Source: Candidatus Acidiferrum sp. (GTDB taxonomy: Bacteria; Acidobacteriota; Terriglobia; Acidiferrales; UBA7541). From it: a stretch of 64,000 nucleotides of DNA. The translations under genes were made by a program, and so were the position numbers. The DNA lies in NCBI GenBank assembly GCA_036513675.1, contig DATBYP010000183.1:26447-90446 (forward strand), written 5' to 3'. Shown here one piece after another: positions 532 through 48,687 of the stretch (position 1 is the stretch's first letter; every line of letters starts with the position of its first letter). The notes under the pieces were generated by a model. That model searched no databases, was not told where the DNA came from, and was given only the letters and a program-made list of their open reading frames with translations.

Positions 532-1932
532 TTAGGCGCCCGGGCTTGGCTGCGACCCGGCTAGAGTTGGGACCTCCTGAACCTGGAATTCGGAATCGAA
601 ACTGTAAGCGACGCGGCCGTTCTCCAAGCGGGCGAAGGCTATGCGGCCGCGGCCCGCGCCTGGACCTTCGATTTGCCACGTGCTTCCCTCTCTAACGAGA
701 CGCATCTGATTTCTGCTCCGCCACCAATCGTTCAGCTCTCGTGGCAGAGCGATCCACATTTTGGAATCCTGGCGAAGCTGAGCGAGGCGAGCTAGCAAGC
801 AGGAGTAGACGTCGCGAGCGCGCTTATCGAGCAAATAATCGGGATGGACGATGAAGCTGATCAAACCGTTTTGCTCAAGAATCAGTTGAATTTGCTGCTC
901 CCAAAGGTCCATCGAGTATTGACGGAGGATATTGAAAAGCGTGTAGTCCTGCGTGGCCACGACGGGGATTTCCAGGATTTTCCCGATGAAGTAAGGCTTG
1001 GTCGTACAGCAGCCGCCACGCTGCGGATCAAGATGGCCGACGTTAGGCACCGACATGTCGTAAGAACAATCGAAGAATTCATACCAATCGAGATTTCGAT
1101 AGAGAACACCAGAACGATACCCAGCCGACCGGAACTTCCTGCCGTAGTCGTTGATGCGGGCGACGCGACGAAGGAATTCCTCCCGATTGCGAAAGAGGTC
1201 TCCGTCGTGATTGAAATCGTGGACGTTGATCTCGAAGCCGCGCTCGCGAAGCCTGCGTAGAAACTCATCGGAGACTTCGTAGCGCACTTCGGGAATAAGC
1301 TGAAAGGAAGCTTTGATTCCGAAGGCGTCGTCCAAATCCATAAGCGTGTTGCAGAAGTCGCGGCCGACGGCGGTCTCGACATCATGGGTCATTGTGGCGC
1401 AACTCGAGTGGCCCTCTGGCCAAAACCAGATGAACGGAATGGGTCGGCCGGAATTCGCGCGTATGGCGCAAGCCATCATGCGATCGAACAAGCGATCAAC
1501 TGTTTGATCGATTGGCCAGGCCGGGAACTGGGCGCGATCCCATCCGCGGAGAGCGAGACGCTGCAGATGCTTTCGCACGGACGTCGGCAGGAAAGGGCGC
1601 ACGGCGTAATAGGTTTTGCGGCTGACTGCCTTGGCAACAGATGTACGGACGACAGGCATGGCGCCCTCATAACGCTCGAACCGTAGATTCTCCACAACCT
1701 CGTCGAGATCAAAGGGGAGAACGCAGGCGTTCTCTTCAAGGCTCACATCGGAAAAAACATCGTCGAGGGCACCGGTGGACTCATGACTGGTGTGACCTGC
1801 GGAGACTCGGCCGTAGCAGGTTAGATCCGGGCCAACATGGAAGAAGCCGGGATCCGAAAGCAGCTCTCCTTTCAGACGGAAATCCACGTAGTTCGCGGGA
1901 CAACGAAAATATTCCAGGAATTGCTTGTTCAT
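532..1932 (-). CDS. Polysaccharide deacetylase-like (NodB/CE4 fold) protein, EPS-associated
   Basis: THDVE, HDFNH, YRSG and HPDY motifs resemble the CE4 metal-binding and catalytic motifs; last gene of the EPS operon. Confidence 0.7.
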   Translation of the reverse strand: MNKQFLEYFRCPANYVDFRLKGELLSDPGFFHVGPDLTCYGRVSAGHTSHESTGALDDVFSDVSLEENACVLPFDLDEVVENLRFERYEGAMPVVRTSVAKAVSRKTYYAVRPFLPTSVRKHLQRLALRGWDRAQFPAWPIDQTVDRLFDRMMACAIRANSGRPIPFIWFWPEGHSSCATMTHDVETAVGRDFCNTLMDLDDAFGIKASFQLIPEVRYEVSDEFLRRLRERGFEINVHDFNHDGDLFRNREEFLRRVARINDYGRKFRSAGYRSGVLYRNLDWYEFFDCSYDMSVPNVGHLDPQRGGCCTTKPYFIGKILEIPVVATQDYTLFNILRQYSMDLWEQQIQLILEQNGLISFIVHPDYLLDKRARDVYSCLLARLAQLRQDSKMWIALPRELNDWWRSRNQMRLVREGSTWQIEGPGAGRGRIAFARLENGRVAYSFDSEFQVQEVPTLAGSQPSPGA

Positions 1933-1949
1933 TTATCTGCTTCTTGCAG

Positions 1950-2990
1950 TTAGCCTATGTGACGGTAAAGGAGCCTTCCGGTGGCGGCGAGAAGCGTGTC
2001 GGGCATCAAGGAAAAAACACCCCTTGCAACGCGCGTGCGCCATCCGGAATTCAGATGAAAGGATCGCCGCGCAGGAAGACGGTAGTAATCCAGAGGCATG
2101 CTTACGGCGCCCCAATTTTCCTTGAAGGTGACCAAGCCAGAATTATCTGTCTCTGATCGGCCTAAATCGTATTTCAGGAGACCGTTCTTCTTGGCGTCCT
2201 GGATGGCTCGCCAGAACAAAAGCGAGTTTCCGCCGAGATTATTGAAGCGAGAGTCGGAACATCCATACTTGTAAACGAGGACGTCCTTGTACTGGATGGT
2301 GACGATGCTAGCGACGGGCTGACCATCCTTTGAGACGATGCGGATAAGGAGGCGATTGCCAAGGCACGCGACGACGTTCCGAAACCAAACTAGCGGCTGC
2401 GGCGGCAAGCCGTGGCGGCGTCGCGTAAGTAACAGCAGGTCATAAAATTTCTTTAGCAGCTCATCCGAGCGGCCCTCTTCGTAGGTTAGCTTCTCGCGCT
2501 CGGCTCGCTGAATTTTCCTTTGCACGCAGCTTTTGTGAAAATTGCGGAAAAGCGTATCCAGGCTAGGGCTAAGATCGAGCACCTGCAGGGAATACGATTC
2601 GCTCTTGGTGACATCGGAGGCTCGCGCGGCACCTTCGGGGCAACACGGGCGGACCTCAATGTATTTCCAGCGTTTGCTTTGGCGCGAAGCTTTGAGCCAG
2701 TCCATCAGCTCGGCCATATCCTGCGCACCGGCAAGAGGCTGGCAGTGGTCAGAGAACGGCAATGAGACCAATCGGCTCCCACTCAACCAACTGCGAACGC
2801 GGCAAAAGGCGATACCATTGGTGAGGTCCCGGCCGGGCGGAGTGGTGGTATAAACGACCGGCTCATAGCTATAGGTTCGCCACAGAGCTTCCAACCAATG
2901 TGCGGAGTGGAAGACGGCGCCGTCTGGATGGTCGTCGACGAAGGGCTGCCACCGAGAGTCTTTTAGCGGATTGAACTGATAAACGCTCAC
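1950..2990 (-). CDS. FemAB-related GNAT acyl/aminoacyl transferase (type seen in PEP-CTERM/EPS loci)
   Basis: FHSAHW, SLPFSDH, RKIQRAER and YDLGRS...GLVTFKENWGA pattern; start overlaps the upstream stop (GTGA). Confidence 0.8.
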   Translation of the reverse strand: MSVYQFNPLKDSRWQPFVDDHPDGAVFHSAHWLEALWRTYSYEPVVYTTTPPGRDLTNGIAFCRVRSWLSGSRLVSLPFSDHCQPLAGAQDMAELMDWLKASRQSKRWKYIEVRPCCPEGAARASDVTKSESYSLQVLDLSPSLDTLFRNFHKSCVQRKIQRAEREKLTYEEGRSDELLKKFYDLLLLTRRRHGLPPQPLVWFRNVVACLGNRLLIRIVSKDGQPVASIVTIQYKDVLVYKYGCSDSRFNNLGGNSLLFWRAIQDAKKNGLLKYDLGRSETDNSGLVTFKENWGAVSMPLDYYRLPARRSFHLNSGWRTRVARGVFSLMPDTLLAATGRLLYRHIG

Positions 2991-3967
2991 TCGTTCATTC
3001 CTGAGATCTTGGTGCGATCAAAAAAACCGAACAAACGACGGAGCTGTTGCTCGCGAATGTATCGAATGAACTCGGTGTCATTGACCTGTGGGGCGCGCAG
3101 GAGATAGCTGCGCAAAAAGCCATAGGTGAGAGCCAGGGCGCCGATTAGATAGGGAGGCTTGAACAGGCGACGAGCGCACTTTGCCGCGAAAAAAAGAGGG
3201 TGATAGCCAACGATGTAGTCGGAATGCCCGTTTTTCACGGCATCGCTCCAGCGACCTAGCGCCGAACCGGTTGCGCGGTGGTGGATGAGCTGCAGATCGG
3301 GAAAAGTGAAGGTAGACCAACCGCGCATGTGGGCTTTGATCTCATCGACAGTATCCCAGCCGAGCCCGCGCAACATTCCGCCGAGGCTATCCCAGCACTG
3401 GCGACGATAGATTTTAGTAGCTCCGCGAACGTGATAGTCTACGCACTTTTCGAGGTGGAGCTCGTCGCCGATCTTGTTGTAAATTGTGCCGCCGCCGATT
3501 CCCAGGGCAGGGTCCTCGCGGAAGTACGCGAAGCATTTCTCGAAGTATTGGGGTGAAAATGTCAGATCGCCATCTAGGTTAACGAGAAATTCCCAATTCT
3601 TCGTTTTCAGCAGCTCGACCCCGTAAAGAAATCCTTCGATGCCTCCTCCCGTGGAGCGAAAACCGCGGTTTTCGCGATGGGCCGGGCGAATCCACGAGTA
3701 TTTCCGCGCATACTCGTCAATGATAGAGCCCGTCCGATCGGTGGAACCATCATCGACGATAATCCATTCTGCTGGACGAATGCTCTGTGCCGCGACGGCT
3801 TCGATGGTAGCGCCGATGAATTCCTCCTCATCGCGTACTGGCGTGATAATGCAGTACGCGACCGATACATTCGGTAGGGTAACGACGCTCCTAGACATTT
3901 GCCCGTTAGGCAAGTTGTGTTCGACGTTGGTGGAGTTGGACAATGAAAGATCTCCGTTTTTCCTCAC
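2987..3967 (-). CDS. Glycosyltransferase family 2
   Basis: IITPVRDEE, IVDDGSTD, LDGD (DxD) and GWDTVD motifs. Confidence 0.9.
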   Translation of the reverse strand: MRKNGDLSLSNSTNVEHNLPNGQMSRSVVTLPNVSVAYCIITPVRDEEEFIGATIEAVAAQSIRPAEWIIVDDGSTDRTGSIIDEYARKYSWIRPAHRENRGFRSTGGGIEGFLYGVELLKTKNWEFLVNLDGDLTFSPQYFEKCFAYFREDPALGIGGGTIYNKIGDELHLEKCVDYHVRGATKIYRRQCWDSLGGMLRGLGWDTVDEIKAHMRGWSTFTFPDLQLIHHRATGSALGRWSDAVKNGHSDYIVGYHPLFFAAKCARRLFKPPYLIGALALTYGFLRSYLLRAPQVNDTEFIRYIREQQLRRLFGFFDRTKISGMNE

Positions 3968-5811
3968 CTTGATTGCCGTGATGGAGAGAGCCTCAAGTGC
4001 TGCTTTATTCTGCCGGCCGTACGGCTGAGAAGCTCACTTTGGGAAAGGTAGTTGTCACGGAACTCCGAGAGATACCGCCTAAGGCGCGTTTTTGCGCCAT
4101 ATCCAACGCCGGTACGCGTTGTATTCGTACCTAGTTTGTCGAAGTAGATGATCTGAACCTCCATCGTTTGCTTGGGACAAAGCGTTACGTTGAACCGAAT
4201 ATTTCTTCCTTCGGAGGTGCAATCAACTGGTTCTTGATTGACAAGGACAGCTTTGATGCAATCCAAGTCTCCTTCTTCTTTCACAATAAGCGCCTGGCGA
4301 GGCTCGGTGGACGGATTCTCGATGACTAACTTTTCGCCGTACATCTGAATGATGTTGGTTCCATCCCACTCCTTGCGGATTTTGAAAGTACGGACGATAG
4401 CATCACCCAAAGGACGCCAATGAAGAGTCCAGTTCAAGGAATTAAGCCTGGCAATAAAATCCACCAAATCGTGCCCATGATCCCTGAAGGTGTCGTGGTG
4501 GCCAACGATGAAGCAAGGCTTGCCAAGGAGTTCATCGAACGCGAAATTTTCAATTCCATGGCTTAGATAGCGCCTAGTGAATATAGGGAAGGTCCCATAC
4601 TTCATAATGGCAACGTTCCAGACGTCGGCGATTCTCGTGTCGTTGAGGATGTCATTGAACGGTGCCACTTCGGTATTCACCGCCGCGACAAAACCATTTA
4701 GCTTGAGAGCTAAGCCCGCTTGCGGCGAAAAGGCTCCCTGCGGAAATATCATTACGTAGTCGTGCTCGAGGGACGTTTTTTGACGAAGAAGCTCCATTCG
4801 ATGGCGTGCCGCCTTGATTCTCGTGTTTAGCAAGGCAGTAGAGGGTGTGGCGAATTCGCTAGCGGTGTGGTCACAGCCGTGAACAGAGATCGAAAGTCTG
4901 TCAGAACGCTGCTGAAACATGCGCACCGTAGAAGGACTTGTCCGCCGCCAGTTCCACGGAATAAACCCGATGGTGGTCGCGAAGTCTTGCTTGTCCATCA
5001 GGTCCAAGGCCTCGCGAAACTGCAGGAAGCCGTAACGAGACTTTAGGAGCGGGTCATCAACAATCAGGCAGGCGCTGGTTTCGGAACTGTTCCAGCAGAC
5101 GTCGCCGCAGGCCCACTTGAGGTACATTGTGGCGGGAACAGCGCTGGAGAAAAATTCTTTTACGTCGAAATACTTTGCGACCGTGCGCGTAAGGTCGATA
5201 GTATTGCAACAGGCATTCAAGTAAAAACGCACTCCACCATACATGATTCCACAAAAGACGATTCCCTGATCGGCGGTGATTATGCTCTGGAATCCGTCAG
5301 GTAGAAGGCGCAAGTCAAAGGCGATCTCGCCTTCGTTTAGTTTTGCTTGCGCGCATATTCCGGACATGGACTTGCACATTTCGGGAAAATCGCTGGTGAC
5401 GGACATGAAGGCGTGCTGCCCACGGAGAGTGCGAATGTTCGCGCCGGGATCCTTGGTCAAAAGTCGCAACAACGTTTGACATAACAGTGAATCTTCAAAC
5501 CCAGAGACATAGACAGAATCTACGCCTTGCATCCACGGAGGCAAGGCACCGTTGGAGGTTTCGAGGCCTTGCAGGGCTACAGCCATGTGAGACGCGGAGC
5601 TCAGCATGCAAGACTTACTTTTGGCAAGATGCGAAGGCAACGCGCGGCCACGAACGACCTCGTCAAGAGTTACTGAGTTCCAAGGCACGCCAAAAAAATC
5701 GAGCAATGCGGCGAGATTCCGATCATTCGATGAAACATTCTGCCCGTGAAGCACGAGTGCCCCTTGCGAGCGATCCATCACAGAAGTCGAGCGGTCGTTA
5801 AATCCGGGCAT
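3964..5811 (-). CDS. Hypothetical EPS protein with a central deacetylase-like (CE4/DUF2334-like) domain
   Basis: IVDDP, HGCDH, FPQG and GHH motifs; 615 aa ORF in the operon. Confidence 0.55.
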   Translation of the reverse strand: MPGFNDRSTSVMDRSQGALVLHGQNVSSNDRNLAALLDFFGVPWNSVTLDEVVRGRALPSHLAKSKSCMLSSASHMAVALQGLETSNGALPPWMQGVDSVYVSGFEDSLLCQTLLRLLTKDPGANIRTLRGQHAFMSVTSDFPEMCKSMSGICAQAKLNEGEIAFDLRLLPDGFQSIITADQGIVFCGIMYGGVRFYLNACCNTIDLTRTVAKYFDVKEFFSSAVPATMYLKWACGDVCWNSSETSACLIVDDPLLKSRYGFLQFREALDLMDKQDFATTIGFIPWNWRRTSPSTVRMFQQRSDRLSISVHGCDHTASEFATPSTALLNTRIKAARHRMELLRQKTSLEHDYVMIFPQGAFSPQAGLALKLNGFVAAVNTEVAPFNDILNDTRIADVWNVAIMKYGTFPIFTRRYLSHGIENFAFDELLGKPCFIVGHHDTFRDHGHDLVDFIARLNSLNWTLHWRPLGDAIVRTFKIRKEWDGTNIIQMYGEKLVIENPSTEPRQALIVKEEGDLDCIKAVLVNQEPVDCTSEGRNIRFNVTLCPKQTMEVQIIYFDKLGTNTTRTGVGYGAKTRLRRYLSEFRDNYLSQSELLSRTAGRIKQHLRLSPSRQSR

Positions 5812-5883
5812 AAGAATGATCGAGCTGCTGTGCGGGGATTCAATAACTGAAACACTTGAGCTGGAAGCTTACGAACGGCGCGG

Positions 5884-6735
5884 CTATATTTTCCGGGCGA
5901 CCACCAGGGACCGCATCGCGCGGCTTGGGACAATCGCGCTGAGCACTGGCGTCAGAGCCTTCATCACGGAGGTGAGCCCACGACCGGCCGAGTGAGGCAC
6001 CCAACAGAAATTGTGTTTCTTGAGAATCTCGAAACCGGCGGAGGAAAACGGCTGGGCGTATTCGTCTAATGTCGGCAGATAGTAGGCGTTTTCCTCTTTA
6101 GTCAGACGGTCATGAAATCGGCTGCGGAACGCCGGGAACTTATTGTTCATATCGATGACAATGCAAACTCCTCCAGGGGAAAGAAGGTCGAAAATCGCTG
6201 CCACACACTCGTTCTCATTCATCAAGCGATGGCAATAACGGATAGTATTGACACCCACGATGAGGTCAAAGGATCCGAGGAGAGAATCCTCGGGAAGTCC
6301 GAGCGCCGACGTCGCGTCTCCAATAAGATTTTCGTTCCTGGCCACGCAAAACCGTACTTTTTTGTTTTGCTTGGGTGGGAGGTATTTGTTTGCTTCGAGG
6401 TTGGCCGCTTCGATGAGGGTTTCAGAAAAGTCCGTACCGAAAGCGCAGTCCAGAGGTATTCCGCGGCGGTCCAACGTGGAAACGAGATGTAGAAGGTTCA
6501 TGCCGCCGCCGCAGCCGAACTCCCATAAGCGAATACCTTTTTGTATTCTGGGCTTAGGAATGTAGTTCTGGAGTACATCGAGATAAATGCTGCCGTAGTC
6601 GTGTTCCAAAAGATAGGCGATCCCGCTGCCGGCGGTCTCCCTCGTGTATTTGCGGATGCTTTCCATCGAGTTGTATTCTTCGAGGAATCCGCCATTGAGT
6701 TTCGGAACAACATCGGTGCTCTGTGCTCTACTCAT
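5884..6735 (-). CDS. Class I SAM-dependent methyltransferase
   Basis: WEFGCGGG motif I, GTDFS, FDLIV and LLSPGG motifs. Confidence 0.85.
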   Translation of the reverse strand: MSRAQSTDVVPKLNGGFLEEYNSMESIRKYTRETAGSGIAYLLEHDYGSIYLDVLQNYIPKPRIQKGIRLWEFGCGGGMNLLHLVSTLDRRGIPLDCAFGTDFSETLIEAANLEANKYLPPKQNKKVRFCVARNENLIGDATSALGLPEDSLLGSFDLIVGVNTIRYCHRLMNENECVAAIFDLLSPGGVCIVIDMNNKFPAFRSRFHDRLTKEENAYYLPTLDEYAQPFSSAGFEILKKHNFCWVPHSAGRGLTSVMKALTPVLSAIVPSRAMRSLVVARKI

Positions 6736-6909
6736 CGGTTTGCTCCCAAGATTCGCAAGATACCCATGGACTGGATTGAGTCTTTACGGCAGGTCAGCAC
6801 ATCTCGGATTGGTATCCGGCGGTGAAAGATCCAATGGTCGACCTCAGTAACTGAGACAGAGACTGGAACGTCGAACGCAACTGCAGACCCGCACCACCGT
6901 GCTGCAGAA

Positions 6910-8337
6910 CTAAGGTTTGAAATGTGATTGCTGTTTCAAAGCAAAAAACGGTTTCGGCCGAGACGTGAGAGGCGCTGAATAAGCCGGCTTCAAGTGGCGA
7001 TATCCCGGACGAGGCGCTTCCTTGAGGACTTTTTTTACGGCGAGGTAGGGGGCTGTGGCGGTCACAATGAAAGCCAAAGTCGCGAACCACAAGACGCGAG
7101 TCTGGTCAAAATAGCTAACCCCGAAGAACGCGGTAACGTGCGAGAGGAGAGTGGCGCCGAGCAACCAAAAGTACCATTCTTTCTCACGATCGCCTTCCAC
7201 GTTTTTTCTTGCCGTGCCTATCCTTGAAAAGCCGAGAACAACCATGGCCACAAAACACGCGAACGTAGCCAAGCCGCCCAGCTCGCCCTCAGAGACAAAC
7301 TGATTACACAAGTCCCACATGGTATAGCCCCACTGAGCATTGTCAGCAGTGCCTATAAGCCACCAATCGCGAAAATGCGTGATGAAATCATTCACGAGCA
7401 TGGCACGGTGGTAGCCAGACGAACCGCCTACGATGTCGACGCGGGCAATCAGAAACCATACGGGAGCCTTCATTGCTAAATGCAGGGCAACCAACACGAG
7501 AACAACGGCCCACCGAACTGGGCGCATGTGCCTCCGCAGAGGCCACGCGCAGATGGCAATGAGGGCCGCGCCATAGGCCAGTACGGACGTGCTCGAGTGA
7601 GAGGTCACAACCATTACAGTTGAGGAGATCGCGCCGAGGACAGCGAGGATTTGAGACGTGCCACGTTTCCAGAGAAGAAAGAAGAGGGGGAGGAGAGTGG
7701 CGCCGAAGGTACCCGCCAGCAGCTCATGCTGAAACGGACCTTCCGCGCGCACAGAACCTAAGCGAACTTCCGGAGCCGCCCGGACTCCGCCCAGCAATCC
7801 GAACACGTTGACCTGATGAAACTTTTCAAAAAGCATGCAACCGGCGATGATCACGGAGATGACGGCAAACACGCGAATGGCTTTGTAAATGTCATCATCA
7901 TCGCGGATCAAGTATCTGAGCACAAAATAACCGCCCAAGGCATCAAGCAAGAAACCGCCTTGATAAACGATCGCGCTGGAATTGAGAGAGAAAACCAATA
8001 CGCCAGCCAGAGCACGGAAGAGGGCCCAGAAGACAAATATAGTGTCCAGAGTACTCCAACGATTACCGAAGGCGCCTTCGGGCGATGTGAACATCGAGGC
8101 GAATATGCGGGCCGACACAGCGAGAATGATGATTCGTATAACGAAGAAATGAAGACCGCCGACAAGGACCGTCTGCCCGATGGGAATGAGAAAGGCAGTG
8201 ACTAAAACGGGCCAGATGACGTACTTGCGGGGAAGCAGGAAAATCAGAACTATGGCGATGAGCATCGCGGCAAGCACGATGGGGTGCAGGAGCGTTTCCG
8301 AAGCACCGCCGCCAAATCTAAGATTCTCTGGTGGCAT
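6910..8337 (-). CDS. Wzy/O-antigen ligase-family polysaccharide polymerase
   Basis: About 11-12 hydrophobic segments; RAEGPFQH, SHSST and HR...W.IG...DLCNQF loop motifs; EPS context. Confidence 0.8.
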   Translation of the reverse strand: MPPENLRFGGGASETLLHPIVLAAMLIAIVLIFLLPRKYVIWPVLVTAFLIPIGQTVLVGGLHFFVIRIIILAVSARIFASMFTSPEGAFGNRWSTLDTIFVFWALFRALAGVLVFSLNSSAIVYQGGFLLDALGGYFVLRYLIRDDDDIYKAIRVFAVISVIIAGCMLFEKFHQVNVFGLLGGVRAAPEVRLGSVRAEGPFQHELLAGTFGATLLPLFFLLWKRGTSQILAVLGAISSTVMVVTSHSSTSVLAYGAALIAICAWPLRRHMRPVRWAVVLVLVALHLAMKAPVWFLIARVDIVGGSSGYHRAMLVNDFITHFRDWWLIGTADNAQWGYTMWDLCNQFVSEGELGGLATFACFVAMVVLGFSRIGTARKNVEGDREKEWYFWLLGATLLSHVTAFFGVSYFDQTRVLWFATLAFIVTATAPYLAVKKVLKEAPRPGYRHLKPAYSAPLTSRPKPFFALKQQSHFKP

Positions 8338-11111
8338 TAGTCACCTTCCGCTTGAAGTGGGATGGTCAAAGCAGGGTCAGTCGTAACCGAAGCCAACCGG
8401 CGTTCCGCAGATTTCCGCTGAACGGTGCCGTTGATGAACTCCTCGAGCAAATCGGAGCTACGCCTCCAGGTGAACTGCTTGATGCGTTCGTTAGCGGCGC
8501 GGGCCAAACGAATTCGGAGGTCGTTGTCGGCCAAAAGCAAGCAGAGGTTTTTGGCGAGAGCTTGCGGGTCGCCAGGAGGGGATAGCAAAGCAGTGACGCC
8601 GTGCTCGGCGAAGTCGCGAATGCCACCACTGTCTGTGGCAACAATGGCGCAACCGCAGGCGGCTCCTTCGGCTGGCGGAAGTGCAAAACCCTCGCTCAGG
8701 CTCGGGCTTAAAACGATGCTGGCCTTATTGTAGTACTCCTTTACGATGCGGTCTTGCGGCGGGTTTTTTGCGTAGGTGATCCACTTAGGCACCCAAGCTG
8801 GGCGGCGGCTGTTTCCGAAAAACATCACTTTCAGGTCGGGAAACGCCGTCTTGGCAATTTCCAAGGCTCTTATTCCGTCCCGGGAAGCCTTTAGCTTGAC
8901 AGGGGAACAGACCATTACGACTTGGCGGGTGCGCTGCGAGATCGGACGGATCAAGCGATAAACCTTCCCATCGATGGCGTTTGGAACGTAGGTCAGATCG
9001 CTGGCACCAAGGGATATGCCGAGCTCAAAGAGCCAGCGAGAAACGACTACTTTCCTGGTGGGCGTGCGCCAAGTGTCCTGCACCAGGTCCTCCGGACCCA
9101 TCCAGGTCTCATAACCCTGCATGAAATGACACTTTTCACCTTTCGCCGAGGAACACTCCATTATGGGACGAGAGGTCTGCCAACTGGTGGCGAAGAGCAC
9201 GTCGGCGTCAGGGATGTGGCGCTCGTCTGAGCTCGGAACGAAAAGGAGACGAACCCGTTTGTCAATGGCCTGCCAGGAGATAGAGGGGCGCGCCACGAGT
9301 GCCATCAGTGCCAATTTCTTGCTCCGAACGCGCTGACGGAATGTAACCTCGGGCGTCGGAGAATATTTCATTCGTCGCGGATGGACAAGAGAAACTGAGT
9401 GACCACGGGCCACGAGACGGTTGGCATGCTCGTATATGACTCGAAATCCGCCAGAAGGTGCCCAAGCGTAACCCGGAAGCAAGAACGTGATTCTCAGTTT
9501 GTTCGCAAAAGCGTGTGTTCGTCGAGGATGTAATGAGAAGCTGGCATCATTGCCAGTTACCTGAAGTGCTGAAGTCCTGCGCCGACTTCGCAAGATTGCA
9601 AGTGTCCTTTCGCGAAGGCTAGAAATGGTAGTTCTGTCTTCCTCGTCCACAGCTACGGCCCAGAAGACTACCGCATACACCAGAAAACACAGGAGCGTAA
9701 GGGGCGCGGCGAGGAGCAGCTTCAAATGAGTGGATTGGATAGTGAAAACCGCAGCCAAAAGTCCAGCACTTACCAGAATTGCACGGAACAAGGGACCTGA
9801 TACCAGGTCTCTGAATGAAAAAGCGTTAAGCCGCGAGGCAAAGGTGTACAGAATAAAACAATCCGTGACGGTAAGCAGCAACTTGGCGAACGCCGCTCCA
9901 TTGATACCATAGTGGCGCATGAGCCACCAGGCGACAGCGGCATAAATGGGAATCATAAGAAGGTCTTGAATAGCCTTCAGATCGGGTCTACCGAGGGCTT
10001 GGACAGAGGTGTAAGGAACATACGCTAAGCCGTTGAAAACGAAGACCACGGTGACGATTTGGAGAACAAGCGTGCTCTGGGCGGCAAATTGAGGTCCAAG
10101 CCAGAGCAGCATGATGTCATGTGCAAAAAAGACAAAGATTGCGACGGCAGGAGTGAACACGAGAAGGAGGTACTTGATGGCCCTGGAAGTGATTTCTGAA
10201 ACCTCGCCACTCTTTTTGCTGCCGTGATAGCTGAAATATGGAAAGAGTGAAGGCACGATGGCCATGGGAAAAATCAATAGCTTGGAAACTAGCTCGTACG
10301 GTGCGGAGTAGAAGGTAAGGGTGCTCACCGAGAGTAAAGAGGCAATCATGAAGCGTTCGAGATAAGCGAAAACTGGACCGGCCACATTGCTGACCATGAT
10401 CCAGCCGCCAAAGATGGCCAGTGGGCGGAGGGAAGCTCTGGAGAATCGCAAGTGCTTGCCGAGACCAGGAATCACACGGAAGCAAAAGAAGAAATAGGCA
10501 ACAGTGGAAATGAGCCGGATCCCTACCATGAGAGAGACAATGCCTGCGACATGCACGCCCAACGGAATTGCCAACGCCGCGACGAGATAAAAGAGCACAC
10601 TCGAGGGCACTTTCACCAAGTTCACAAGATCAAAGCGCTGCGCGGCCTCGAGAACTCCACGTAGCGCATTGTTCCCGAGCATCACAGGCATCGAGACACA
10701 CAGGACAAAGAGCGCGACACGAGCTTCGCCGGCAAGAGCAGGCGGCATCTTGAAAACGTGGGTGACCGAGATGGGAACGAAGAAGGCAGCGATAGCGCCA
10801 CCAATGCAACCCAAAATAACAAGAAGGGATAGCGAAGTCCAAATGAGCTCGGGAACCTTATGAACCTGATCGGAGTCGAGATTCTCTGCGACAAATTTGA
10901 CAGTGGCACGACTCAGCCCGAGGTCGAAAATATTGAAATAACCGAGCAACATCATGGCAATGGACAAGATTCCATACCCGTCCGTGCCTAGACCCCGCAC
11001 GATGTAAGGGATCGTGAGCACACCGGCGAGCAAGGGCAAAACCTGGCCCGCTAGATTCAAAATGCTGTTCTTCGCGATCAAACGTCTGCCGCGTTGCTTG
11101 TGGTCATCCAT
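8337..11111 (-). CDS. Wzx flippase (N-terminal ~510 aa) fused to a GT4 glycosyltransferase (C-terminal ~380 aa)
   Basis: KNSILNLAGQVLP..GYGILS..FDLGLSRA flippase start with many TM segments, then SGGFRVIYEHAN, ATSWQT and EGFALPPAEGAACG (GT-B Ex7E) in one uninterrupted ORF. Confidence 0.85.
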   Translation of the reverse strand: MDDHKQRGRRLIAKNSILNLAGQVLPLLAGVLTIPYIVRGLGTDGYGILSIAMMLLGYFNIFDLGLSRATVKFVAENLDSDQVHKVPELIWTSLSLLVILGCIGGAIAAFFVPISVTHVFKMPPALAGEARVALFVLCVSMPVMLGNNALRGVLEAAQRFDLVNLVKVPSSVLFYLVAALAIPLGVHVAGIVSLMVGIRLISTVAYFFFCFRVIPGLGKHLRFSRASLRPLAIFGGWIMVSNVAGPVFAYLERFMIASLLSVSTLTFYSAPYELVSKLLIFPMAIVPSLFPYFSYHGSKKSGEVSEITSRAIKYLLLVFTPAVAIFVFFAHDIMLLWLGPQFAAQSTLVLQIVTVVFVFNGLAYVPYTSVQALGRPDLKAIQDLLMIPIYAAVAWWLMRHYGINGAAFAKLLLTVTDCFILYTFASRLNAFSFRDLVSGPLFRAILVSAGLLAAVFTIQSTHLKLLLAAPLTLLCFLVYAVVFWAVAVDEEDRTTISSLRERTLAILRSRRRTSALQVTGNDASFSLHPRRTHAFANKLRITFLLPGYAWAPSGGFRVIYEHANRLVARGHSVSLVHPRRMKYSPTPEVTFRQRVRSKKLALMALVARPSISWQAIDKRVRLLFVPSSDERHIPDADVLFATSWQTSRPIMECSSAKGEKCHFMQGYETWMGPEDLVQDTWRTPTRKVVVSRWLFELGISLGASDLTYVPNAIDGKVYRLIRPISQRTRQVVMVCSPVKLKASRDGIRALEIAKTAFPDLKVMFFGNSRRPAWVPKWITYAKNPPQDRIVKEYYNKASIVLSPSLSEGFALPPAEGAACGCAIVATDSGGIRDFAEHGVTALLSPPGDPQALAKNLCLLLADNDLRIRLARAANERIKQFTWRRSSDLLEEFINGTVQRKSAERRLASVTTDPALTIPLQAEGD

Positions 11112-11298
11112 TTTTTGGGGTGGTACCTCGATCAGTGGATCGGTGCGTGTCGAGCGGGAGTGAGGAGCGCAGCAACTACTTCGGCAAATATGGGAGTGGA
11201 AAAAAGATCCACTCTCATTTCCAAATTCGGCTTTTCAGATTGTTAATTAATTTTGTCTTTGAAAAAAGAAGCCTAATCCATCAGCCGCACGTAACGCT

Positions 11299-12864
11299 CT
11301 ACTGGATTATCGCGCTGAGACCGCTGGGCGACGAAGGCGGAACCGTCGAGCCAAATTTATATGCACCGGCGTCCCAACTGCCGCTTAGCTGGCGTGCCGC
11401 TCCAACCCTATCTTTGGAGAGTGCGGACAGGCCACCGACACTCATGTTGAGCAAATTTGCGGCAGAGCTGATAGCCACAGACCCGGACAATAACTGGCCC
11501 AGACTGCTGGCGTTGATTTTTGAGGCCGGTACCAGCTTGGATCTTGAATCGCAGTGACAGGCGCTTTGCCAGGACGCAATGTCCCGATAGCTGTGACCTT
11601 GATAGCTAAATGAATTATATATGCCTGCGTCCGCCAACAAATCCTCGTAAATGTTGTTGTTGATTCCTGTGGAAGACAGAGAGCCGCCGCCCTGTACCGA
11701 AATATTGGAGTTGCCACCGAGGAGTACGTTATTTACGGCCGAAAAGTTGTTCTGGGCGTTGGCGAATATCGCCGAACCGCGATCGTGCCCTCCGGCACGG
11801 ATGAAGTTGTTGTAAGCAGAATTTCCTGTAGCAGGTCCACCCGGCAAGACTCCGGTGGTCGTAATGCCATTAAACCAGAGCGCCTGGATCGTGCGATTTG
11901 CGGGGACGAGGAAGACGTTGTTGTAGACAGCAACATTCTTCACGGAGTCCTGGAGGTAGATGTGACCAGTGATGTTGACGCCGGAATCCCCATCAAACAC
12001 GTTGTTGTAAATGGAACCGTTGGTGACGATCCCACCGCGTTGCCCCCACATATGCACACCATCATGGTGGTAAGCATTTGTGGGTGAATCCCAGTTCACG
12101 TAATTATGGAAATGGTTGTCGTTGATTTGGAAGCCGGAACTTGTGGCTGACGGACCAAACGCGAGTCCATGGTCGACGTTATACATATTGGAGTAGGACA
12201 AAGTAAAATTGTTGCCGAAACCCGCGAAGGCCCAGCCGGTGTCGTGGCAGGTCACACGCGTGATCGTAAAATTGTTGGCGTTGAGAAAATAGATGCAGTT
12301 TACGCCCTGCTGAACTACGGCTAAATCATTATACGAGGTGCGTACATACAAATCGGCGATAGTGAGGTTCTTGACGACGCAACCATTGCAGTTCGCGGCA
12401 AAAACGCCCCTGCTGGACTGTGCGTTTCCGCGACCGGTGCCGTTCGCAGTATTCTTAATGATGCCGTTCGTGCCGCCGTCAATGACGATGTAGCTCCGGC
12501 CGTTTTCGTATATGGCACCCTGTGAGGACCAGTATGGGGCGCTGAGAATGGCGTTGGTCTCGAATTTGATGGTGATCGGGCTGGTGCTGGTCCCGTTGCC
12601 GCCCACAACCAGCAGTTGCTGACCCGGCATACCGACGAATGTGCCACAGAGATGCACTGTGGTACCCGGGCCTATCTGCGCGGCTCCGGTTCCCCAGGTC
12701 GATGCGGTGTTAAACCAAGTATATGCCTTGGCCGTCGAACACCCGGTGCCAGTTCCGGTGCCAGCCTGCTTGGCTGCGATATAGAAATCTTTTGCTACAG
12801 CCGGTAGTGCACTAAACAACACAGTGAGTAAGAAACCTAAAACTAAAGTGGACCTGCGCATCAT
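11299..12864 (-). CDS. Secreted Asn/Gly/Ser-rich parallel beta-helix protein (pectin-lyase-like fold; possible glycanase)
   Basis: Signal peptide (..AVA-KD), GPGTTVHLCGT, repeated IYNN.F/VYNNVF/AYNNF strands, HHDGVH and C-terminal WDAGAY. Confidence 0.65.
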   Translation of the reverse strand: MMRRSTLVLGFLLTVLFSALPAVAKDFYIAAKQAGTGTGTGCSTAKAYTWFNTASTWGTGAAQIGPGTTVHLCGTFVGMPGQQLLVVGGNGTSTSPITIKFETNAILSAPYWSSQGAIYENGRSYIVIDGGTNGIIKNTANGTGRGNAQSSRGVFAANCNGCVVKNLTIADLYVRTSYNDLAVVQQGVNCIYFLNANNFTITRVTCHDTGWAFAGFGNNFTLSYSNMYNVDHGLAFGPSATSSGFQINDNHFHNYVNWDSPTNAYHHDGVHMWGQRGGIVTNGSIYNNVFDGDSGVNITGHIYLQDSVKNVAVYNNVFLVPANRTIQALWFNGITTTGVLPGGPATGNSAYNNFIRAGGHDRGSAIFANAQNNFSAVNNVLLGGNSNISVQGGGSLSSTGINNNIYEDLLADAGIYNSFSYQGHSYRDIASWQSACHCDSRSKLVPASKINASSLGQLLSGSVAISSAANLLNMSVGGLSALSKDRVGAARQLSGSWDAGAYKFGSTVPPSSPSGLSAIIQ

Positions 12865-14593: not shown

Positions 14594-14599
14594 TCGTCT

Positions 14600-15874: not shown

Positions 15875-15897
15875 ATGACCGGGGGGAATGTGCCGCG

Positions 15898-17685: not shown

Positions 17686-17690
17686 GCTTG

Positions 17691-18701: not shown

Positions 18702-18758
18702 CTTTCCTTATTCCTTTCGTTTGCGCTTGGAATTTTGCAAAGAGATGGAAGAGTGAAA

Positions 18759-19742: not shown

Positions 19743-19772
19743 TATTGGTTTTCCAAGAGCTCGAGCTGGCTG

Positions 19773-20840: not shown

Positions 20841-20942
20841 CCACATTCACCTTGAGTTGCGGATTTATATTGCGCACGTGCGACGGAGAGGATGGGTGGC
20901 TCCGTTTGAAACAAAACTTGCGGACAACTGCGCGCCTGGGCC

Positions 20943-22127: not shown

Positions 22128-22158
22128 GGGGTCTCTGAGATCTGGCCGGGAAACTGTT

Positions 22159-22713: not shown

Positions 22714-22746
22714 TGAGCCCGGGATGTCTTGAAGTTCTGATCGCGC

Positions 22747-22758
22747 CAAGCTACCGCC
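22747..22758 (-). promoter_or_regulatory. ops-like element GGCGGTAGCTTG
   Basis: Matches the RfaH ops consensus GGCGGTAGnnTG on the coding strand immediately 5' of the NusG paralog. Confidence 0.5.
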
Positions 22759-24881: not shown

Positions 24882-24890
24882 GAATTAGTC

Positions 24891-26381: not shown

Positions 26382-26405
26382 GTTCTTTTTTTCTCCAATT
26401 GCGGT

Positions 26406-44516: not shown

Positions 44517-45548
44517 CTATCCCACTGGAACGGTTGCGCTTATTTGCGGCGAATATTCGCTCTCAACTTGATCGGCGTCCAACGAGGTCACTACATAATA
44601 GTAGGTATGTCCGGCCGCCAGCCCCGTATCAACATATTCGGCAGATGGCACGGCTGGGGAAATCCGGACGTATGGACCCGCGGATTCCGCGGACCGGTAA
44701 ACAACATACCCAGCGACGCTGGCTGGACTTTCCTCCCAATTGAGCTTCACTGCGCTTTGCGACGATGGCGCGCCCGTCGCCGTTAGTGGAATCGTCAGTA
44801 ATGAACCACCATCGCCGCTGGCGACCGTTAAGGTCCCGGTTTGACGCCGAGCGCTTTTCGGTGAGAAGTCCACTTCCAGGCTAACATTCTGTCCGGGACT
44901 CAAGTTCACGGCGGTCGCCCCAGACAGACTGAAATTCCGACCTGAAACCGATATCCCGCCAATCCTCAGATCGCGATTTCCCGAATTTGTCAGCAACACT
45001 TCCTTCTTGCCTGAATTTCCTACGGCGACATCTCCAAAATCAATCCCGGCGTCACTCGCCGTCAGCTCGCTCTGCGACCTCGCCGTCGAGGCTTTCACTT
45101 GGAGTACGAGCGGGGCATCATTAGAACTCGTCAAAATGGAGATCTGGCCTTCCGCCGTGCCCTCGGCCTTTCCTCGAAACGCGATCGTGAAGCTTTCGCT
45201 GGTCCCGTGCGCCACAACGACCGGCAGCAGAATCCCGGCAATTCGGAAGTCCTTACTCGAGGTCGTGATTCTCTTGATCTGGAGCGTGCCCTCGGCTAGG
45301 TTCTTGAGCCGCACCGTCTGCGTATATGTGTCGCCCGCAGGTACATTTACGAAGGTAACCTCCTCTGGAGTCACTTCCATCAGAGCCGGTGGCGTGGCGA
45401 CGGGAGCGGTCGCGGTCGCAGCCGCGCCGCTTGTCGCCGCTCGCATGCCCTTTGTGTGAATCGTCAGCAAGGAAAAAATCGAAAGGAAAAGAAACGCGCT
45501 GAATAAGGTCCTCGAATTCAGACACTTACAGAAACGACCTCCGACCAT
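44517..45548 (-). CDS. Exported protein with two ASH/choice-of-anchor-D Ig-like domains and a C-terminal Fn3-like domain
   Basis: N-terminal hydrophobic segment, DFGDV..LTNSG..F.P repeats and LNW..GYVVYRS..Y.D..TYYYVVT..ES.YS. Confidence 0.75.
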   Translation of the reverse strand: MVGGRFCKCLNSRTLFSAFLFLSIFSLLTIHTKGMRAATSGAAATATAPVATPPALMEVTPEEVTFVNVPAGDTYTQTVRLKNLAEGTLQIKRITTSSKDFRIAGILLPVVVAHGTSESFTIAFRGKAEGTAEGQISILTSSNDAPLVLQVKASTARSQSELTASDAGIDFGDVAVGNSGKKEVLLTNSGNRDLRIGGISVSGRNFSLSGATAVNLSPGQNVSLEVDFSPKSARRQTGTLTVASGDGGSLLTIPLTATGAPSSQSAVKLNWEESPASVAGYVVYRSAESAGPYVRISPAVPSAEYVDTGLAAGHTYYYVVTSLDADQVESEYSPQISATVPVG

Positions 45549-45769
45549 GCCTGCCCCCTTAACCGCTTGCCCGCCTCACAAAGTGGTCGGATTCTTACTC
45601 AAGGCGCTCTCGGAGGCTACTGGTCAGGAGTTCACAAAGGGGACAGGTTAAGGCCTTGTACAGTATTCTCCCTAGGCCAAAGTACAGGATTAACCCTATA
45701 GGCCCGGTGAAGGCAAAGCCTTGGGCGATGTCGCGTCACGGAAATTCTTACAGACCGTGACGACGAAGC

Positions 45770-46837
45770 TCACGGAATTGTGGCCAGCACGGGATCCGAA
45801 TAGTCGCTTTCCACGTTGTCGGCATCGACTGCGGTCACGACGTATGTGTAAGTCTGCCCACTTTGGATATTCGCGTCCGTATAGCCCGTCAGCACCACTG
45901 GAGCGGAGTTGATCTTTGCGTACGTGCCATCCGCCGGAGCCCGGTAAACGTAATACCCAATCACGTCCGACGTGCTCGGGTCCCAATTCAACGCAACGGT
46001 ATGCGAACTCAACTGCCCCCCACTACCCGCCAGCGCAATGGCCACCCCTCCCGCGCTGCTGGTAACCGCGATGGACCCCACAACGCTCCCCGTCGCGGTC
46101 GGTGCAAACGTTGCATTTAGCGTTGCCGTTTGCCCCGGCACCAACGTCGTATTGGCGCCTGCGCCGCTCACATTGAATCCCGCACCGCTTACGATCACGT
46201 TGGAAATTATAACATTCGCATTCCCGCTATTTGTGAGTGTAGCGCCAAGCGAACTACTGCTCCCCACCACCACGCTTCCAAAATCCAAGCTGCTCGTGCT
46301 GGAAGTCAGCAGCGCGGTTGCTGCCGTGGAGCTGCCGCTCGTGAAAATTACCAGCGGAGAATTGGGTGCATTGCTCGTCAGCAAAATCGATCCTGTAACA
46401 TTCCCTGCGGAACTCGGCGTGAACATCACGTTAAACGTCGCGTTTTGGCCCGCTGCGATGCTCATCGGAAGTGTTAGACCCGACGTTCCAAAGCCGCTTC
46501 CCGTCACGCTCGCGCTGGAAATAGTCACGCTGCCAGTCCCGCCGTTCTGCAGTGTAATGGTTTGTGAGCCGCTTGCGCCGGTGGTGACCGTAGGAAAGCT
46601 GGCGCTCGTCGGTATCGCAGAAAGCTGTGGCTGTGGGGTATTGGTCGGGGATGGCGTGCCGGCTGCGGGAGTGCCATTGCTTCCCGAAGAGCTCGACCCC
46701 ATCACAACACCCGCGCAGCCGTTTCCGGCAAGCGCAGCGGCCAACACCAATGCCACCAGGCACTTTGACGCCTTGTTTTTGTCCGACCACTGCCCCGACT
46801 TCAGCCGCGACCCCAGATCCGACCGTTGTTCCCCCAT
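45770..46837 (-). CDS. Putative lipoprotein with two ASH Ig-like domains and a C-terminal Fn3-like domain (paralog of its neighbour)
   Basis: LAGNG-C lipobox-like site, LDFGSV..LTNSGN and LNWDPS..GYYVYR..TYTYVVTAVD..ESDYS. Confidence 0.75.
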   Translation of the reverse strand: MGEQRSDLGSRLKSGQWSDKNKASKCLVALVLAAALAGNGCAGVVMGSSSSGSNGTPAAGTPSPTNTPQPQLSAIPTSASFPTVTTGASGSQTITLQNGGTGSVTISSASVTGSGFGTSGLTLPMSIAAGQNATFNVMFTPSSAGNVTGSILLTSNAPNSPLVIFTSGSSTAATALLTSSTSSLDFGSVVVGSSSSLGATLTNSGNANVIISNVIVSGAGFNVSGAGANTTLVPGQTATLNATFAPTATGSVVGSIAVTSSAGGVAIALAGSGGQLSSHTVALNWDPSTSDVIGYYVYRAPADGTYAKINSAPVVLTGYTDANIQSGQTYTYVVTAVDADNVESDYSDPVLATIP

Positions 46838-47052
46838 AGTGCCGCAAGTCTAGAAACGCGTGCCACGGCGAACTACTGGTCGAATGGCCAGAGAAAGTGC
46901 GGACAGTTAACTAACCGGCGACATAGATTCCCCCGTATCGTGGTGATTTAGCGTGTTATTTCAAAGTCGATGACACCAATTAATAGGGAAATGCTGTATT
47001 GCTCCCGAGCAGCGACTTACCCTAGACTCCCACTACCTCGCCCAGCAGCGCT

Positions 47053-48687
47053 ATGCCGACAATCTTCGATTTCTTTGGTCTTCGCGAAAACCCGTTTAAA
47101 ATCAACCCCGATCCCCGTTTTCTCTTTCTCACGGATCAAGCTCGCGCCACCTCGGATGAGCTCGCCTATGCCATTCGCACTCGCAAAGGCTTGATCCTCC
47201 TCACCGGCGAAGTCGGTACCGGCAAAACCATGCTCCTTCGCCGTCTTCTCGACTGGCTCACCGAGCAAAAAATGCCGACCGCGCTTATCTTCAACTCTCA
47301 TATCCAGCCCGAACACCTGCTCGATTTCATCCTCAACGATTTCGGCGTGCAGTGCGCGTCGACCCTGAAGAGTGAAAAACTCATGGCCCTCAATCGCTGG
47401 CTGCTTGAGCAGTATCGTGCCGGCCAAATTCCGGTGTTGATTGTCGACGAGGCGCAGGGCTTGGATACCGCCGCGCTCGAGGAAGTCAGGCTGCTCCTGA
47501 ATTTCGAGACACCCCGCGAGAAGCTTCTGCAAATCGTCCTTGGAGGCCAACCGGAGCTGGAAATCAAGCTCAAGCGTCATGAACTCCGTCAGCTTCGCCA
47601 GCGCATCACCGTCCGCTGCAGGACAGCTCCTCTAACCCTCGAACAGACTCATGGGTATATCCGCGAGCGGCTCGGTATCGCAGGTGCCGATCGCGGAAAC
47701 ACTATCTTTGCGCCCGATGCGATCGGCTCCGTCTATGCTTATTCCCGTGGCATTCCCCGTGTGATTAATGTTCTCTGCGAGCATTCGCTCATCAATGCCT
47801 GCGCCGAGGGTGTCAGCACGGTTCGCACAGATGCCGTAGAACGGGCCGCCCGCGACTGCGAACTTGATCGCGCCGATTCCATCGCTCGCATTCTAAGCAC
47901 CGGCTCCTACTCGACCACCAGCCTCACCGACATTAGTTCCATACTCGCCGCCATCTCCACCGGCTCAGATTCCGCGACCGAGCCCATACGGCAGGCGCAA
48001 TCCTCAGAAGCACTTATGCCAGCCCCCGGGGATGCCTATCAGGATGCACATGCTAGATCCGCAGCCGAGCAAGTCAGCAGCGCATCCATCGCGACGAATC
48101 TGTCGGAGGAGATCGCAGCTCAAAACGAAGCGCCAGCAGCGGTGCCGCGGTATGTTCAGGAACTAGTCCCGGCACCTCAAGCGCCTCCTGTGCAGACGGA
48201 GACAATCGCTGCGCGGACTTCTCCCGCTCCGTCAAATCCGTTATTCCTCCACTTCTTACGGCTTTTCAGTACGAGCTTCGTTGCCGATGCTCGCGCGACT
48301 TCCCGTCAAGTCCGCCGCGCGATCCGCTCTTTTGAGTTCCGCCGTTGGAATCCGTTCATTCGCAATCTGCGCCGCGAACTGCACCAACTGCGTATGCAAG
48401 TCTCGCGCATTTCTTCGGATCCTCGCTGGACACATCTTCGCACTCAAGTTGCCACCGCGTGGCAAGCCTCCCGGCTCCGGTTCAAATCCGCAATGCCGTC
48501 TTGGCTCGCCGAACCTCTAGGTATTCGCCAACAAAAAACCCGCAAACGTGCGCAAAGCGCCGCCGCCGGTGCCGCATCGCACGCAAATCGACACCGCGCT
48601 ATGCTGTTTTTGCGGCGATGGCTCCATGAACCACTCATCACCCAACGGAAACGATCCCACGCAAATACGCGCCGCTCCCTAAGTTAA
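47053..48687 (+). CDS. Second ExeA-like AAA ATPase with a long C-terminal extension
   Basis: FFGLRENPF, GEVGTGKT, VDEAQ, GQPEL and GIPR; Ala/Pro linker followed by an Arg-rich tail. Confidence 0.88.
   Translation: MPTIFDFFGLRENPFKINPDPRFLFLTDQARATSDELAYAIRTRKGLILLTGEVGTGKTMLLRRLLDWLTEQKMPTALIFNSHIQPEHLLDFILNDFGVQCASTLKSEKLMALNRWLLEQYRAGQIPVLIVDEAQGLDTAALEEVRLLLNFETPREKLLQIVLGGQPELEIKLKRHELRQLRQRITVRCRTAPLTLEQTHGYIRERLGIAGADRGNTIFAPDAIGSVYAYSRGIPRVINVLCEHSLINACAEGVSTVRTDAVERAARDCELDRADSIARILSTGSYSTTSLTDISSILAAISTGSDSATEPIRQAQSSEALMPAPGDAYQDAHARSAAEQVSSASIATNLSEEIAAQNEAPAAVPRYVQELVPAPQAPPVQTETIAARTSPAPSNPLFLHFLRLFSTSFVADARATSRQVRRAIRSFEFRRWNPFIRNLRRELHQLRMQVSRISSDPRWTHLRTQVATAWQASRLRFKSAMPSWLAEPLGIRQQKTRKRAQSAAAGAASHANRHRAMLFLRRWLHEPLITQRKRSHANTRRSLS

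Follow-up and report, generated by a model that had tools for sequence, protein, structure and literature searches.

Why should a small hybrid assembly line be encoded back to back with genes for polysaccharide export? The question is posed by a 64,000-nucleotide stretch of Candidatus Acidiferrum sp. (Acidobacteriota; GenBank assembly GCA_036513675.1, contig DATBYP010000183.1, here C183, positions 26,447 to 90,446 of the forward strand), hereafter the window, in which a nonribosomal peptide synthetase-polyketide synthase (NRPS-PKS) operon diverges from an exopolysaccharide (EPS) export operon over a 643-bp gap (28625-29267). A preliminary description of this DNA had noted the divergent arrangement, taken the line to lack a thioesterase (TE), and proposed that its last condensation (C) domain attaches the product to the polysaccharide. 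We find that this orphan line is real, intact and fairly widespread, and that it lies usually but not always within polysaccharide loci; a TE gene is present just outside the window. That the flanking NRPS and PKS genes form one assembly line whose peptide unit is passed onto the polysaccharide is the best of the readings weighed and, in our judgement, an evenly balanced proposition.

An intact assembly line with a thioesterase gene beyond the EPS operon

Open reading frame (ORF) calling and family scans bore out the described order of hydroxylase, adenylation-peptidyl carrier protein (A-PCP), PKS-NRPS, C and methyltransferase genes. The genes look intact, the free-standing C domain has its HHxxxDG motif, and the catalytic motifs of the ketosynthase (KS), acyltransferase (AT), acyl carrier protein (ACP), aminotransferase (AMT), C and PCP domains are all present. 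The hydroxylase combines PF18456 (CmlA_N) with a metallo-beta-lactamase domain bearing the HxHxDH di-iron motif and is encoded next to A-PCP, features that it shares with the CmlA family (4jo0 and 8a90, the latter presumably FrsH) and that place it there; its predicted substrate would be Val-PCP. The aminotransferase matches the MycA AMT structures (6kfm/6kfu, E 2e-139), and the KS-AT-ACP-AMT-C order, the pyridoxal phosphate lysine and the intact KS, AT and ACP motifs assign the module to the MycA/McyE type, McyE being similar to the MycA-type module. As in MycA/ItuA-type modules (mycosubtilin), a class-III aminotransferase is embedded after a PKS module. However, that type is primed by a fatty acyl ligase, whereas the line studied here starts with an amino-acid A-PCP, has only one or two further modules and two A domains, and stands in a polysaccharide setting; it is not an iturin or mycosubtilin lipopeptide line, which would also make a long peptide chain. 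An aligned fold of the methyltransferase (pLDDT 82; 39 from the single sequence) gave a generic SAM-dependent fold only. The closest relatives of the line are found in Acidobacteriota, chiefly Acidiferrales and Terriglobia.

The absence of a TE holds within the window only. Searching the genome with the thioesterases of relatives led to a separate PCP-TE gene, its end lying 545 bases to the left of the first window base, so that the last C domain does not lack a carrier either. This gene and the adjacent phosphopantetheinyl transferase (PPTase) gene converge on the distal end of the EPS operon, and genes of the line therefore bracket that operon. The PCP-TE protein, which contains the only thioesterase above the Pfam cut-off in the whole genome (80% complete), is likely the terminal carrier and release unit of the line. 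Genomes G244 and G280 have the same bracket layout, with 77-79% identity over the full length of PCP-TE; in G278, the PCP-TE and PPTase genes adjoin the hydroxylase gene within an EPS locus.

The PCP-TE protein family comprises at least 120 clusters, with the Cys kept in 116/120 and the His in 113/120. Its best solved match is AB3403 (4zxh, E 1e-29), itself uncharacterised, which likewise has a Cys nucleophile, as do ObiF1 and SulM. In the alignment, the triad acid of the window TE is a Glu at the usual position, and no beta-lactam or beta-lactone arrangement is seen. At its N-terminus the PCP-TE protein has the first half of a C domain in degenerate form, and HHxxxDG occurs in this part in 0/120 family members; we keep the designation C-domain N-lobe-like. 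Its origin as a remnant of the second C of a C-C-PCP-TE protein was considered and rejected: a tree favours it weakly (14 bits), the family profile does not, and G278, which has both C-C and the fragment, counts against it.

Recurrence in polysaccharide loci

Cassettes in which the hydroxylase gene is directly followed by A-PCP were chosen by eye among the 80 best hydroxylase matches, giving 24 loci (one row, G061, is unpublished, as are two of the 28 class-draw genomes below). A core EPS gene (OPX, Wzz, kinase, priming transferase, Wzx or Wzy) lies on equal 10-kb flanks of 12/24 cassette loci, compared with 1/56 other hydroxylase (CmlA) loci, and at least two sugar families at 17/24 and 1/56, respectively; as the profiles behind these counts were built from cassette neighbours, and so favour cassettes, and kin are not independent, no p-value is given. 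Over the whole fetched DNA, a core EPS gene is present at 16/24 loci and some glycosyltransferase (GT) at 22/24. In G073-G076 and G079-G081 the cassette genes are woven in the same direction into the EPS operon; G076 and G081 have their hydroxylase and A-PCP genes between Gfo and LbH/DegT genes, with the PKS elsewhere in the polysaccharide locus. This interleaving is the strongest qualitative sign of a polysaccharide link.

Further samples extend the pattern. A plasmid search matched 457 records, 135 of them over >80% of the query, and 12 were opened from the top 26; nine of the 12 are compact cassettes on proteobacterial plasmids, eight of which are surrounded by genes for a flippase, OPX, kinases and glycosyltransferases according to independent record annotation (an unannotated Ensifer record was read with our own profiles). 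An even draw from the phylum yielded 18 places in 17/400 genomes, with 12 compact cassettes, 8/12 in polysaccharide loci, two of which are ABC-type. The AMT signature was found in 28/300 genomes drawn from the class; ten were opened, chosen to span families, and of the eight compact cassettes among them five have polysaccharide genes, two of these possibly repeating genomes counted earlier. Within the genus, the lone C domain matched in 10/250 genomes; eight were opened, one proved unrelated and the remaining seven have polysaccharide genes. The hydroxylase occurs in 0/36 same-genus genomes, and the cassette is therefore patchy. The export systems paired with it vary, being Wzx/Wzy or, in G460 and G370, ABC-type Wzm/Wzt. 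The link to a polysaccharide locus that the preliminary description drew is hence upheld by gene context in several lineages, as a frequent and not a universal one. The cassette is also present in cultured members of Rhizobium, Ensifer, Rhodobacter, Loktanella and Variovorax, so that the model can be tested now; Rhizobium sp. SL42, Ensifer canadensis T173 and Variovorax paradoxus VAI-C are among the carriers. Matches on Nostoc, Planktothrix and Burkholderia plasmids, together with G171, six places of the phylum draw, G703, G1109 and G1180, were judged to be different lines and left aside.

A TE is a regular component, present at 21/24 hydroxylase-anchored, 12/12 phylum-draw, 7/9 plasmid and 7/8 class-draw loci, and at 6/8 genus loci (7/8 with one further case). 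G067 and G068 have no TE beside the cassette; there, C-A-PCP-TE and A-PCP-TE genes end an EPS operon elsewhere. The preliminary description had regarded homologues with a TE as speaking against its proposal, and such homologues are what we mostly find; it had regarded a location away from polysaccharide loci in the same way, and most copies do lie within them.

Several relatives show features of their own. The bin G072 (L020/L099), labelled Alphaproteobacteria, has an acidobacterial-type cassette (AMT 72% identity, versus 45-53% in other alphaproteobacteria), due either to transfer or to mis-binning. In Rhizobium sp. CCGE531 (L132:1-1618), some 13 kb that include a Crp/Fnr regulator gene separate curli (csg) genes from the cassette, and a GMC oxidoreductase and DegT pair may stand in for the Gfo/DegT pair. 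In G079 (L107:1818-9602) a second hybrid, A-PCP-KS-AT-ACP-C-PCP-TE, ends the same EPS locus. The EPS-free cassette of G458 has an MbnB/TglH-family enzyme for ribosomally synthesised, post-translationally modified peptides and a DUF2063 gene close upstream (L183:10403-12213), and a CusABC-type efflux system downstream. The source genome itself has a second small NRPS on contig C277 (L162:9512-11461 and the preceding gene), made up of a C gene and an A-PCP whose code is of Leu type; it is not linked to the locus.

Predicted product

Pocket residues of the A domains were read by alignment at what we take to be the GrsA-numbered positions. The second-module A domain carries the Gly code of the window's own A2 at 15/21 hydroxylase-anchored loci where it was readable; at phylum-draw loci its code is Gly-type in 10/11. 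A third A domain, where readable in the terminal module, is mostly Gly or Ser. Starters next to CmlA are Val-type in 16/21 readable cases and, as we take the code, Ile-type in 5/21, while CmlA is absent from 10/10 loci with Thr-code starters; the pattern fits selection for a beta-hydroxy starter. Set against the codes listed in PMC12283262, that of A1 is one or two positions off Val codes and that of A2 is identical to a Gly code, which agrees with the glycyl part of the product proposed earlier.

The product is predicted to be 3,4-diamino-5-hydroxy-5-methylhexanoyl-Gly, with a calculated acyl mass of +215.127 on the carrier, +272.148 once a second Gly is added, and 176.116 for the free diamino acid. 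Val would be loaded by A1 and hydroxylated on its carrier by the CmlA-like enzyme to beta-hydroxyvaline; malonate would then be added by KS and AT to give a 4-amino-3-oxo thioester, the beta-ketone of which AMT would turn into an amine in the manner of MycA, before Gly is joined by the first C domain, C1. These predicted steps are well supported. The lone C would next elongate onto the third carrier, which has no A domain and is probably Gly-loaded in trans, because relatives have an explicit Gly or Ser module there; support for this step is moderate. Finally, and before Wzx flipping, the Cys TE would move the peptide to a nucleotide sugar or a lipid-linked repeat unit, with a sugar hydroxyl or amine as the attachment point, yielding a cationic or zwitterionic polymer, a step that we infer from gene context.

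Comparison with known systems

No characterised member of the cassette was found in the literature searched, outside which most subscription journals lie; PMC12283262 and PMC3870968 may include members in their supplementary tables, the latter being a survey of embedded PLP domains whose main text lacks the term 'polysaccharide'. The parts of the line are of known kinds, and its logic resembles that of Dlt/Alm and of carenaemin. In DltABCD and AlmEFG (PMC4278540 and PMC11253843), an adenylation enzyme, a carrier and a transfer step put an amino acyl group on an envelope polymer or lipid. The window line has the A domain and carrier; however, Dlt and Alm move one unmodified amino acid, whereas here a multi-module PKS-NRPS would build the unit, and no counterpart of DltB or AlmG was identified in the locus. 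The carenaemin cpl locus of Collimonas arenae Cal35 makes a hybrid PKS-NRPS product that needs a Wzx/Wzy sugar locus, and its authors (PMC8313283) propose that the peptide rides on the flipped repeat unit. Likened by description, it differs from the window line in having two unlinked loci, a Gln-Ser-Leu core and a reduced ketide. An orphan Roseobacter NRPS/PKS/glycosyltransferase/PPTase cluster is also a small hybrid line (PMC4337385); as described there it has four genes, with no mention of an aminotransferase, hydroxylase or extra C, whereas the window layout is larger, with AMT, extra C and PCP-TE.

Three further comparisons were dropped. Use of an NRPS in the glycosylation of Clostridium difficile type B flagellin is not supported, as the main text of PMC5207246 has no NRPS term and names FemAB-like and ATP-grasp genes; the Methylococcus NRPS (PMC517821) is unrelated; and the literature search gave nothing usable on an analogy with glycine bridges of the Myxococcus spore coat, which was not used.

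Acceptor and fate of the peptide unit

The closest relatives of the DegT protein are the C3 sugar aminotransferases QdtB and WbpE, and those of the LbH protein are 3-amino-sugar N-acetyltransferases; given what we take to be the roles of QdtB, WbpE and related amino-sugar enzymes, the EPS locus likely makes a 3-acetamido sugar whose amine is capped by the LbH enzyme. The amine sources named in the preliminary description therefore fare unevenly: the DegT gene is there, but it is found at a minority of loci and its product is likely capped, and the two deacetylase-like proteins are weak cases (PF01522 at E 0.01, under the cut-off, for the first; DUF2334 at E 0.13 only for the second). The transfer might be carried out by the Cys TE itself, by the LbH enzyme or, in relatives, by Acyl_transf_3 proteins, GT-C proteins or an exosortase-associated hydrolase pair; membrane acyltransferases (Acyl_transf_3) or GT-C proteins are encoded close to the cassette in several relatives. 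The TE of Pks13 transfers its acyl chain to trehalose, and a TE is thus compatible with sugar transfer, so that the glycan could be decorated by a route other than the off-loading first proposed. Covalent grafting onto the glycan, the reading we prefer, takes gene context as its basis and in our view could go either way. The wider claim, that a widespread and undescribed route exists in which a Cys TE grafts onto exopolysaccharide a peptide that contains a non-proteinogenic 3,4-diamino-5-hydroxy acid and is built by a multi-module NRPS-PKS, we put forward tentatively and hold to be on the less probable side. A diamino acid bridges chains in peptidoglycan; given its free amines and the uronic acids and FemAB-like protein of the locus, the unit could under this claim even bridge polysaccharide chains. 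If grafting holds, a class of orphan NRPS-PKS clusters mined for free metabolites would be polysaccharide-tailoring enzymes instead, Dlt/Alm-type chemistry would no longer be limited to single amino acids but would include the products of assembly lines, and soil biofilm matrices would be altered in charge, adhesion and metal binding.

Several observations weigh against attachment to a polysaccharide. Intact cassettes outside polysaccharide loci account for 4/12 of the phylum draw (G458, G592, G496 and G356) and 3/8 of the class draw (G1311, G1258 and G1328), and those of Variovorax RA8 and G843 (one of two opened from a draw with 4/400 matches in alphaproteobacteria, the other being G703) have, respectively, a position outside a polysaccharide locus and no sugar gene. 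The true exceptions are G458, G592, G496, G1328, G356 and G1258; the first four belong to one genus, and G458, G592 and G496 are syntenic and 54-131 kb from the nearest OPX gene. DegT is present at 10/24 hydroxylase-anchored, 3/8 genus, 1/12 phylum-draw and 3/9 plasmid loci, and no acceptor-making or transfer gene common to all loci was found. The source genome (80% complete) has Acyl_transf_3 matches below the cut-off only, and no dedicated membrane or lipid acyltransferase is among the 41 window proteins. The TE nucleophile is Cys in 25/30 readable rows across loci and mostly Ser in phylum-draw loci. Val-type starters occur without CmlA in G107, G242, G460, G356 and G1152, and the starters of proteobacterial copies vary.

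The main rival to glycan attachment is a diffusible glyco-metabolite. The line would then make a small diffusible product, either a TE-released acid, lactam or lactone co-regulated with the matrix or a one-sugar conjugate secreted via Wzx/Wzy, which we consider possible but doubtful. A TE at almost every locus is what it would lead one to expect, and cassettes with PPTase, JmjC and membrane-anchored hydrolase genes persist away from EPS genes. The carenaemin precedent cuts the same way, as this antifungal needs its PKS-NRPS and Wzx/Wzy locus and yet diffuses (PMC8313283), and the characterised Cys TEs SulM and ObiF1 cyclise small products (PMC11298585). However, no exporter or resistance family was found among the 41 scanned window proteins, polysaccharide export genes aside, as had been said of this DNA before. 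The splitting and weaving of cassette genes through EPS operons in varied orders, ABC-type export included, also argues against a diffusible product. In addition, nine relatives (L097, L098, L103, L105, L107, L108, L110, L112 and L114) keep the TE Cys but have Pro in place of the catalytic His, which would fit poorly to ordinary hydrolysis.

Placement of the unit on another envelope glycoconjugate, such as PEP-CTERM protein glycans or a glycolipid, through a lipid-linked donor and a GT-C transferase appears unlikely. A GT-C/PMT_2-like gene does lie directly 3' of the lone C in G062-G065, G1267 and G1275, a 40%-identical GT-C homologue is encoded on contig C304 of the source genome, and the locus is of the exosortase/PEP-CTERM type. 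GT-C genes are, however, present at 8/24 hydroxylase-anchored, 0/12 phylum-draw and 0/9 plasmid loci and are unlinked here, and no exosortase gene was found in the opened stretches of rhizobial and roseobacter copies.

The lone C domain itself was the off-loader in the preliminary description. Its relatives point elsewhere: in a FastTree tree of 82 C domains (one duplicate row omitted) it falls in one clade, SH 100, with PCP-TE-linked C domains, and its best solved relatives are the ordinary elongation C domains Txo1, Txo2 and TycC. At the 24 hydroxylase-anchored loci the gene 3' of the PKS-NRPS most often encodes C-C-PCP-TE, while three loci have C-C-A-PCP-TE there and four a lone C accompanied by a divergent A-PCP-TE; alphaproteobacterial plasmid copies mostly end in C-PCP-TE, and Rhodobacter CZR27 has a small A-domain remnant between C and PCP. 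In G062-G065 the lone C is 64-67% identical to that of the window and is paired with A(Ser code)-PCP-TE, an arrangement that looks like an elongation module in two pieces. Because its clade mates are fused to PCP-TE in relatives, the lone C is likely the C domain of a split last module, a hand-over domain rather than an external off-loader, and the proposed terminal-C mechanism is refuted as first worded, by the TE gene and by this clade. A complex predicted between the lone C and the C-fragment-PCP portion scored 0.00 against a mark of 0.32 and says nothing either way. A modified form, in which the lone C unloads the acyl-glycine onto an external amine (a DegT amino sugar or deacetylated hexosamine) and PCP-TE edits or serves elsewhere, could appeal to HHxxxDG in 120/120 lone C homologues, to the third carrier without an A domain, to the tandem C domains frequent before PCP-TE in relatives, one of which could take an external nucleophile, and to the Variovorax copies that end in C-PCP without a TE, but with the clade, the split module and the elongation-type relatives against it, and most loci lacking DegT, it is unlikely, and the least probable of the readings weighed here.

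The EPS locus and its surroundings

ORF calling and family scans delimit an EPS operon of about 28 kb on the minus strand (532-28624) with a priming transferase, Wzx, Wzy, Wzz/kinase and OPX, as in Wzx/Wzy-dependent EPS loci, the Wzy match being weak; the equivalog models for the PEP-CTERM type of EPS locus score below their cut-offs. Features are collected in Table 1.

Table 1 Features of the window and of the DNA directly to its left (window coordinates unless prefixed C183).
Feature	Position	Strand	Remarks
[C-fragment]-PCP-TE, 567 aa	C183:24198-25901, from 2248 to 545 bases before window position 1	+	Cys-Glu-His triad
Sfp/HetI-type PPTase	C183:25911-26696, 3' end = window 1..250	+	starts 535 bases left
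Deacetylase-like genes	532-1932 and 3964-5811	-	distal EPS part
FemAB/GNAT gene	1950-2990	-	distal EPS part
GT2 and methyltransferase genes	within 532..12864	-	distal EPS part
Wzy-like gene	6910-8337	-	weak Wzy match, E 1e-3
Wzx-GT4 frame	8337-11111	-	distal EPS part
Beta-helix protein, secreted	11299-12864	-	Atlas neighbours
Nucleotide-sugar/repeat-unit block	13124..22785	-	UDP-sugar dehydrogenase, GT4, epimerase, GT2, Gfo dehydrogenase, priming transferase
DegT C3-type aminotransferase	15898-17133	-	in nucleotide-sugar block
LbH N-acetyltransferase	17134 to ~17631	-	adjoins DegT
UpxY-type NusG paralogue	22159-22785	-	above NCBIfam cut-off
Export/chain-length block	23005..28624	-	tyrosine kinase, ExeA-like ATPase, Wzz, 520-aa protein, OPX
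CmlA-like di-iron beta-hydroxylase	29268-30863	+	PF18456 E 3e-90; PDB 8a90 E 3e-148; CmlA 4jo0 E 7e-129
Loading module A-PCP, Val-type pocket	~30875-32845	+	family scan, pocket reading
KS-AT-ACP-AMT-C-A-PCP, 2698 aa	32842-40938	+	AT malonyl type; second A reads as Gly
Stand-alone C domain (lone C), 515 aa	40940-42487	+	HHxxxDG present
TIGR04325 methyltransferase	42568-43416	+	class I SAM-dependent fold
JmjC/cupin oxygenase	43445-44434	-	faces line operon; frequent companion of line
ASH/choice-of-anchor-D proteins and second ExeA-like ATPase	44517..48687		family scans, envelope context

The UpxY-type NusG is likely an antiterminator of the long EPS operon. The 520-aa protein of the export block has a signal-like N-terminus and no assigned family, and the Gfo dehydrogenase has no informative solved relative. 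Wzx flippase and GT4 share one 924-aa frame here, either a real fusion or the result of a lost stop, and are two ORFs in G244 and G280. The beta-helix protein has no Pfam match; its Atlas neighbours are right-handed beta-helix (Pel9A-like) proteins, its gene is kept near DegT in several relatives, and it is possibly a polysaccharide lyase. The divergent gap gave no sigma-70 promoter or terminator match. Contigs of one soil metatranscriptome cover EPS and NRPS genes; they also cover the control stretch, including a 2.5-kb contig over the largely non-coding 54187-56667, so that DNA carry-over is possible.

The further envelope-type genes described to the right are present, namely ASH/choice-of-anchor-D proteins, a second ExeA-like ATPase and two PEP-CTERM-like proteins, with no sign found that the genes at 44517..48687 have a role in the assembly line. 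Contig C126 of the source genome encodes a 69% homologue of the second cupin that follows the lone C in G062-G065. Positions 48751-50091 encode a protein of 446 aa that looks secreted, matches no Pfam or NCBIfam family and is 83-86% identical in G244 and G280. At 57564-62775 a HAF-repeat protein is followed by a 1373-aa galactose-oxidase/GlxA-like Kelch-PKD protein with choice-of-anchor-Z repeats.

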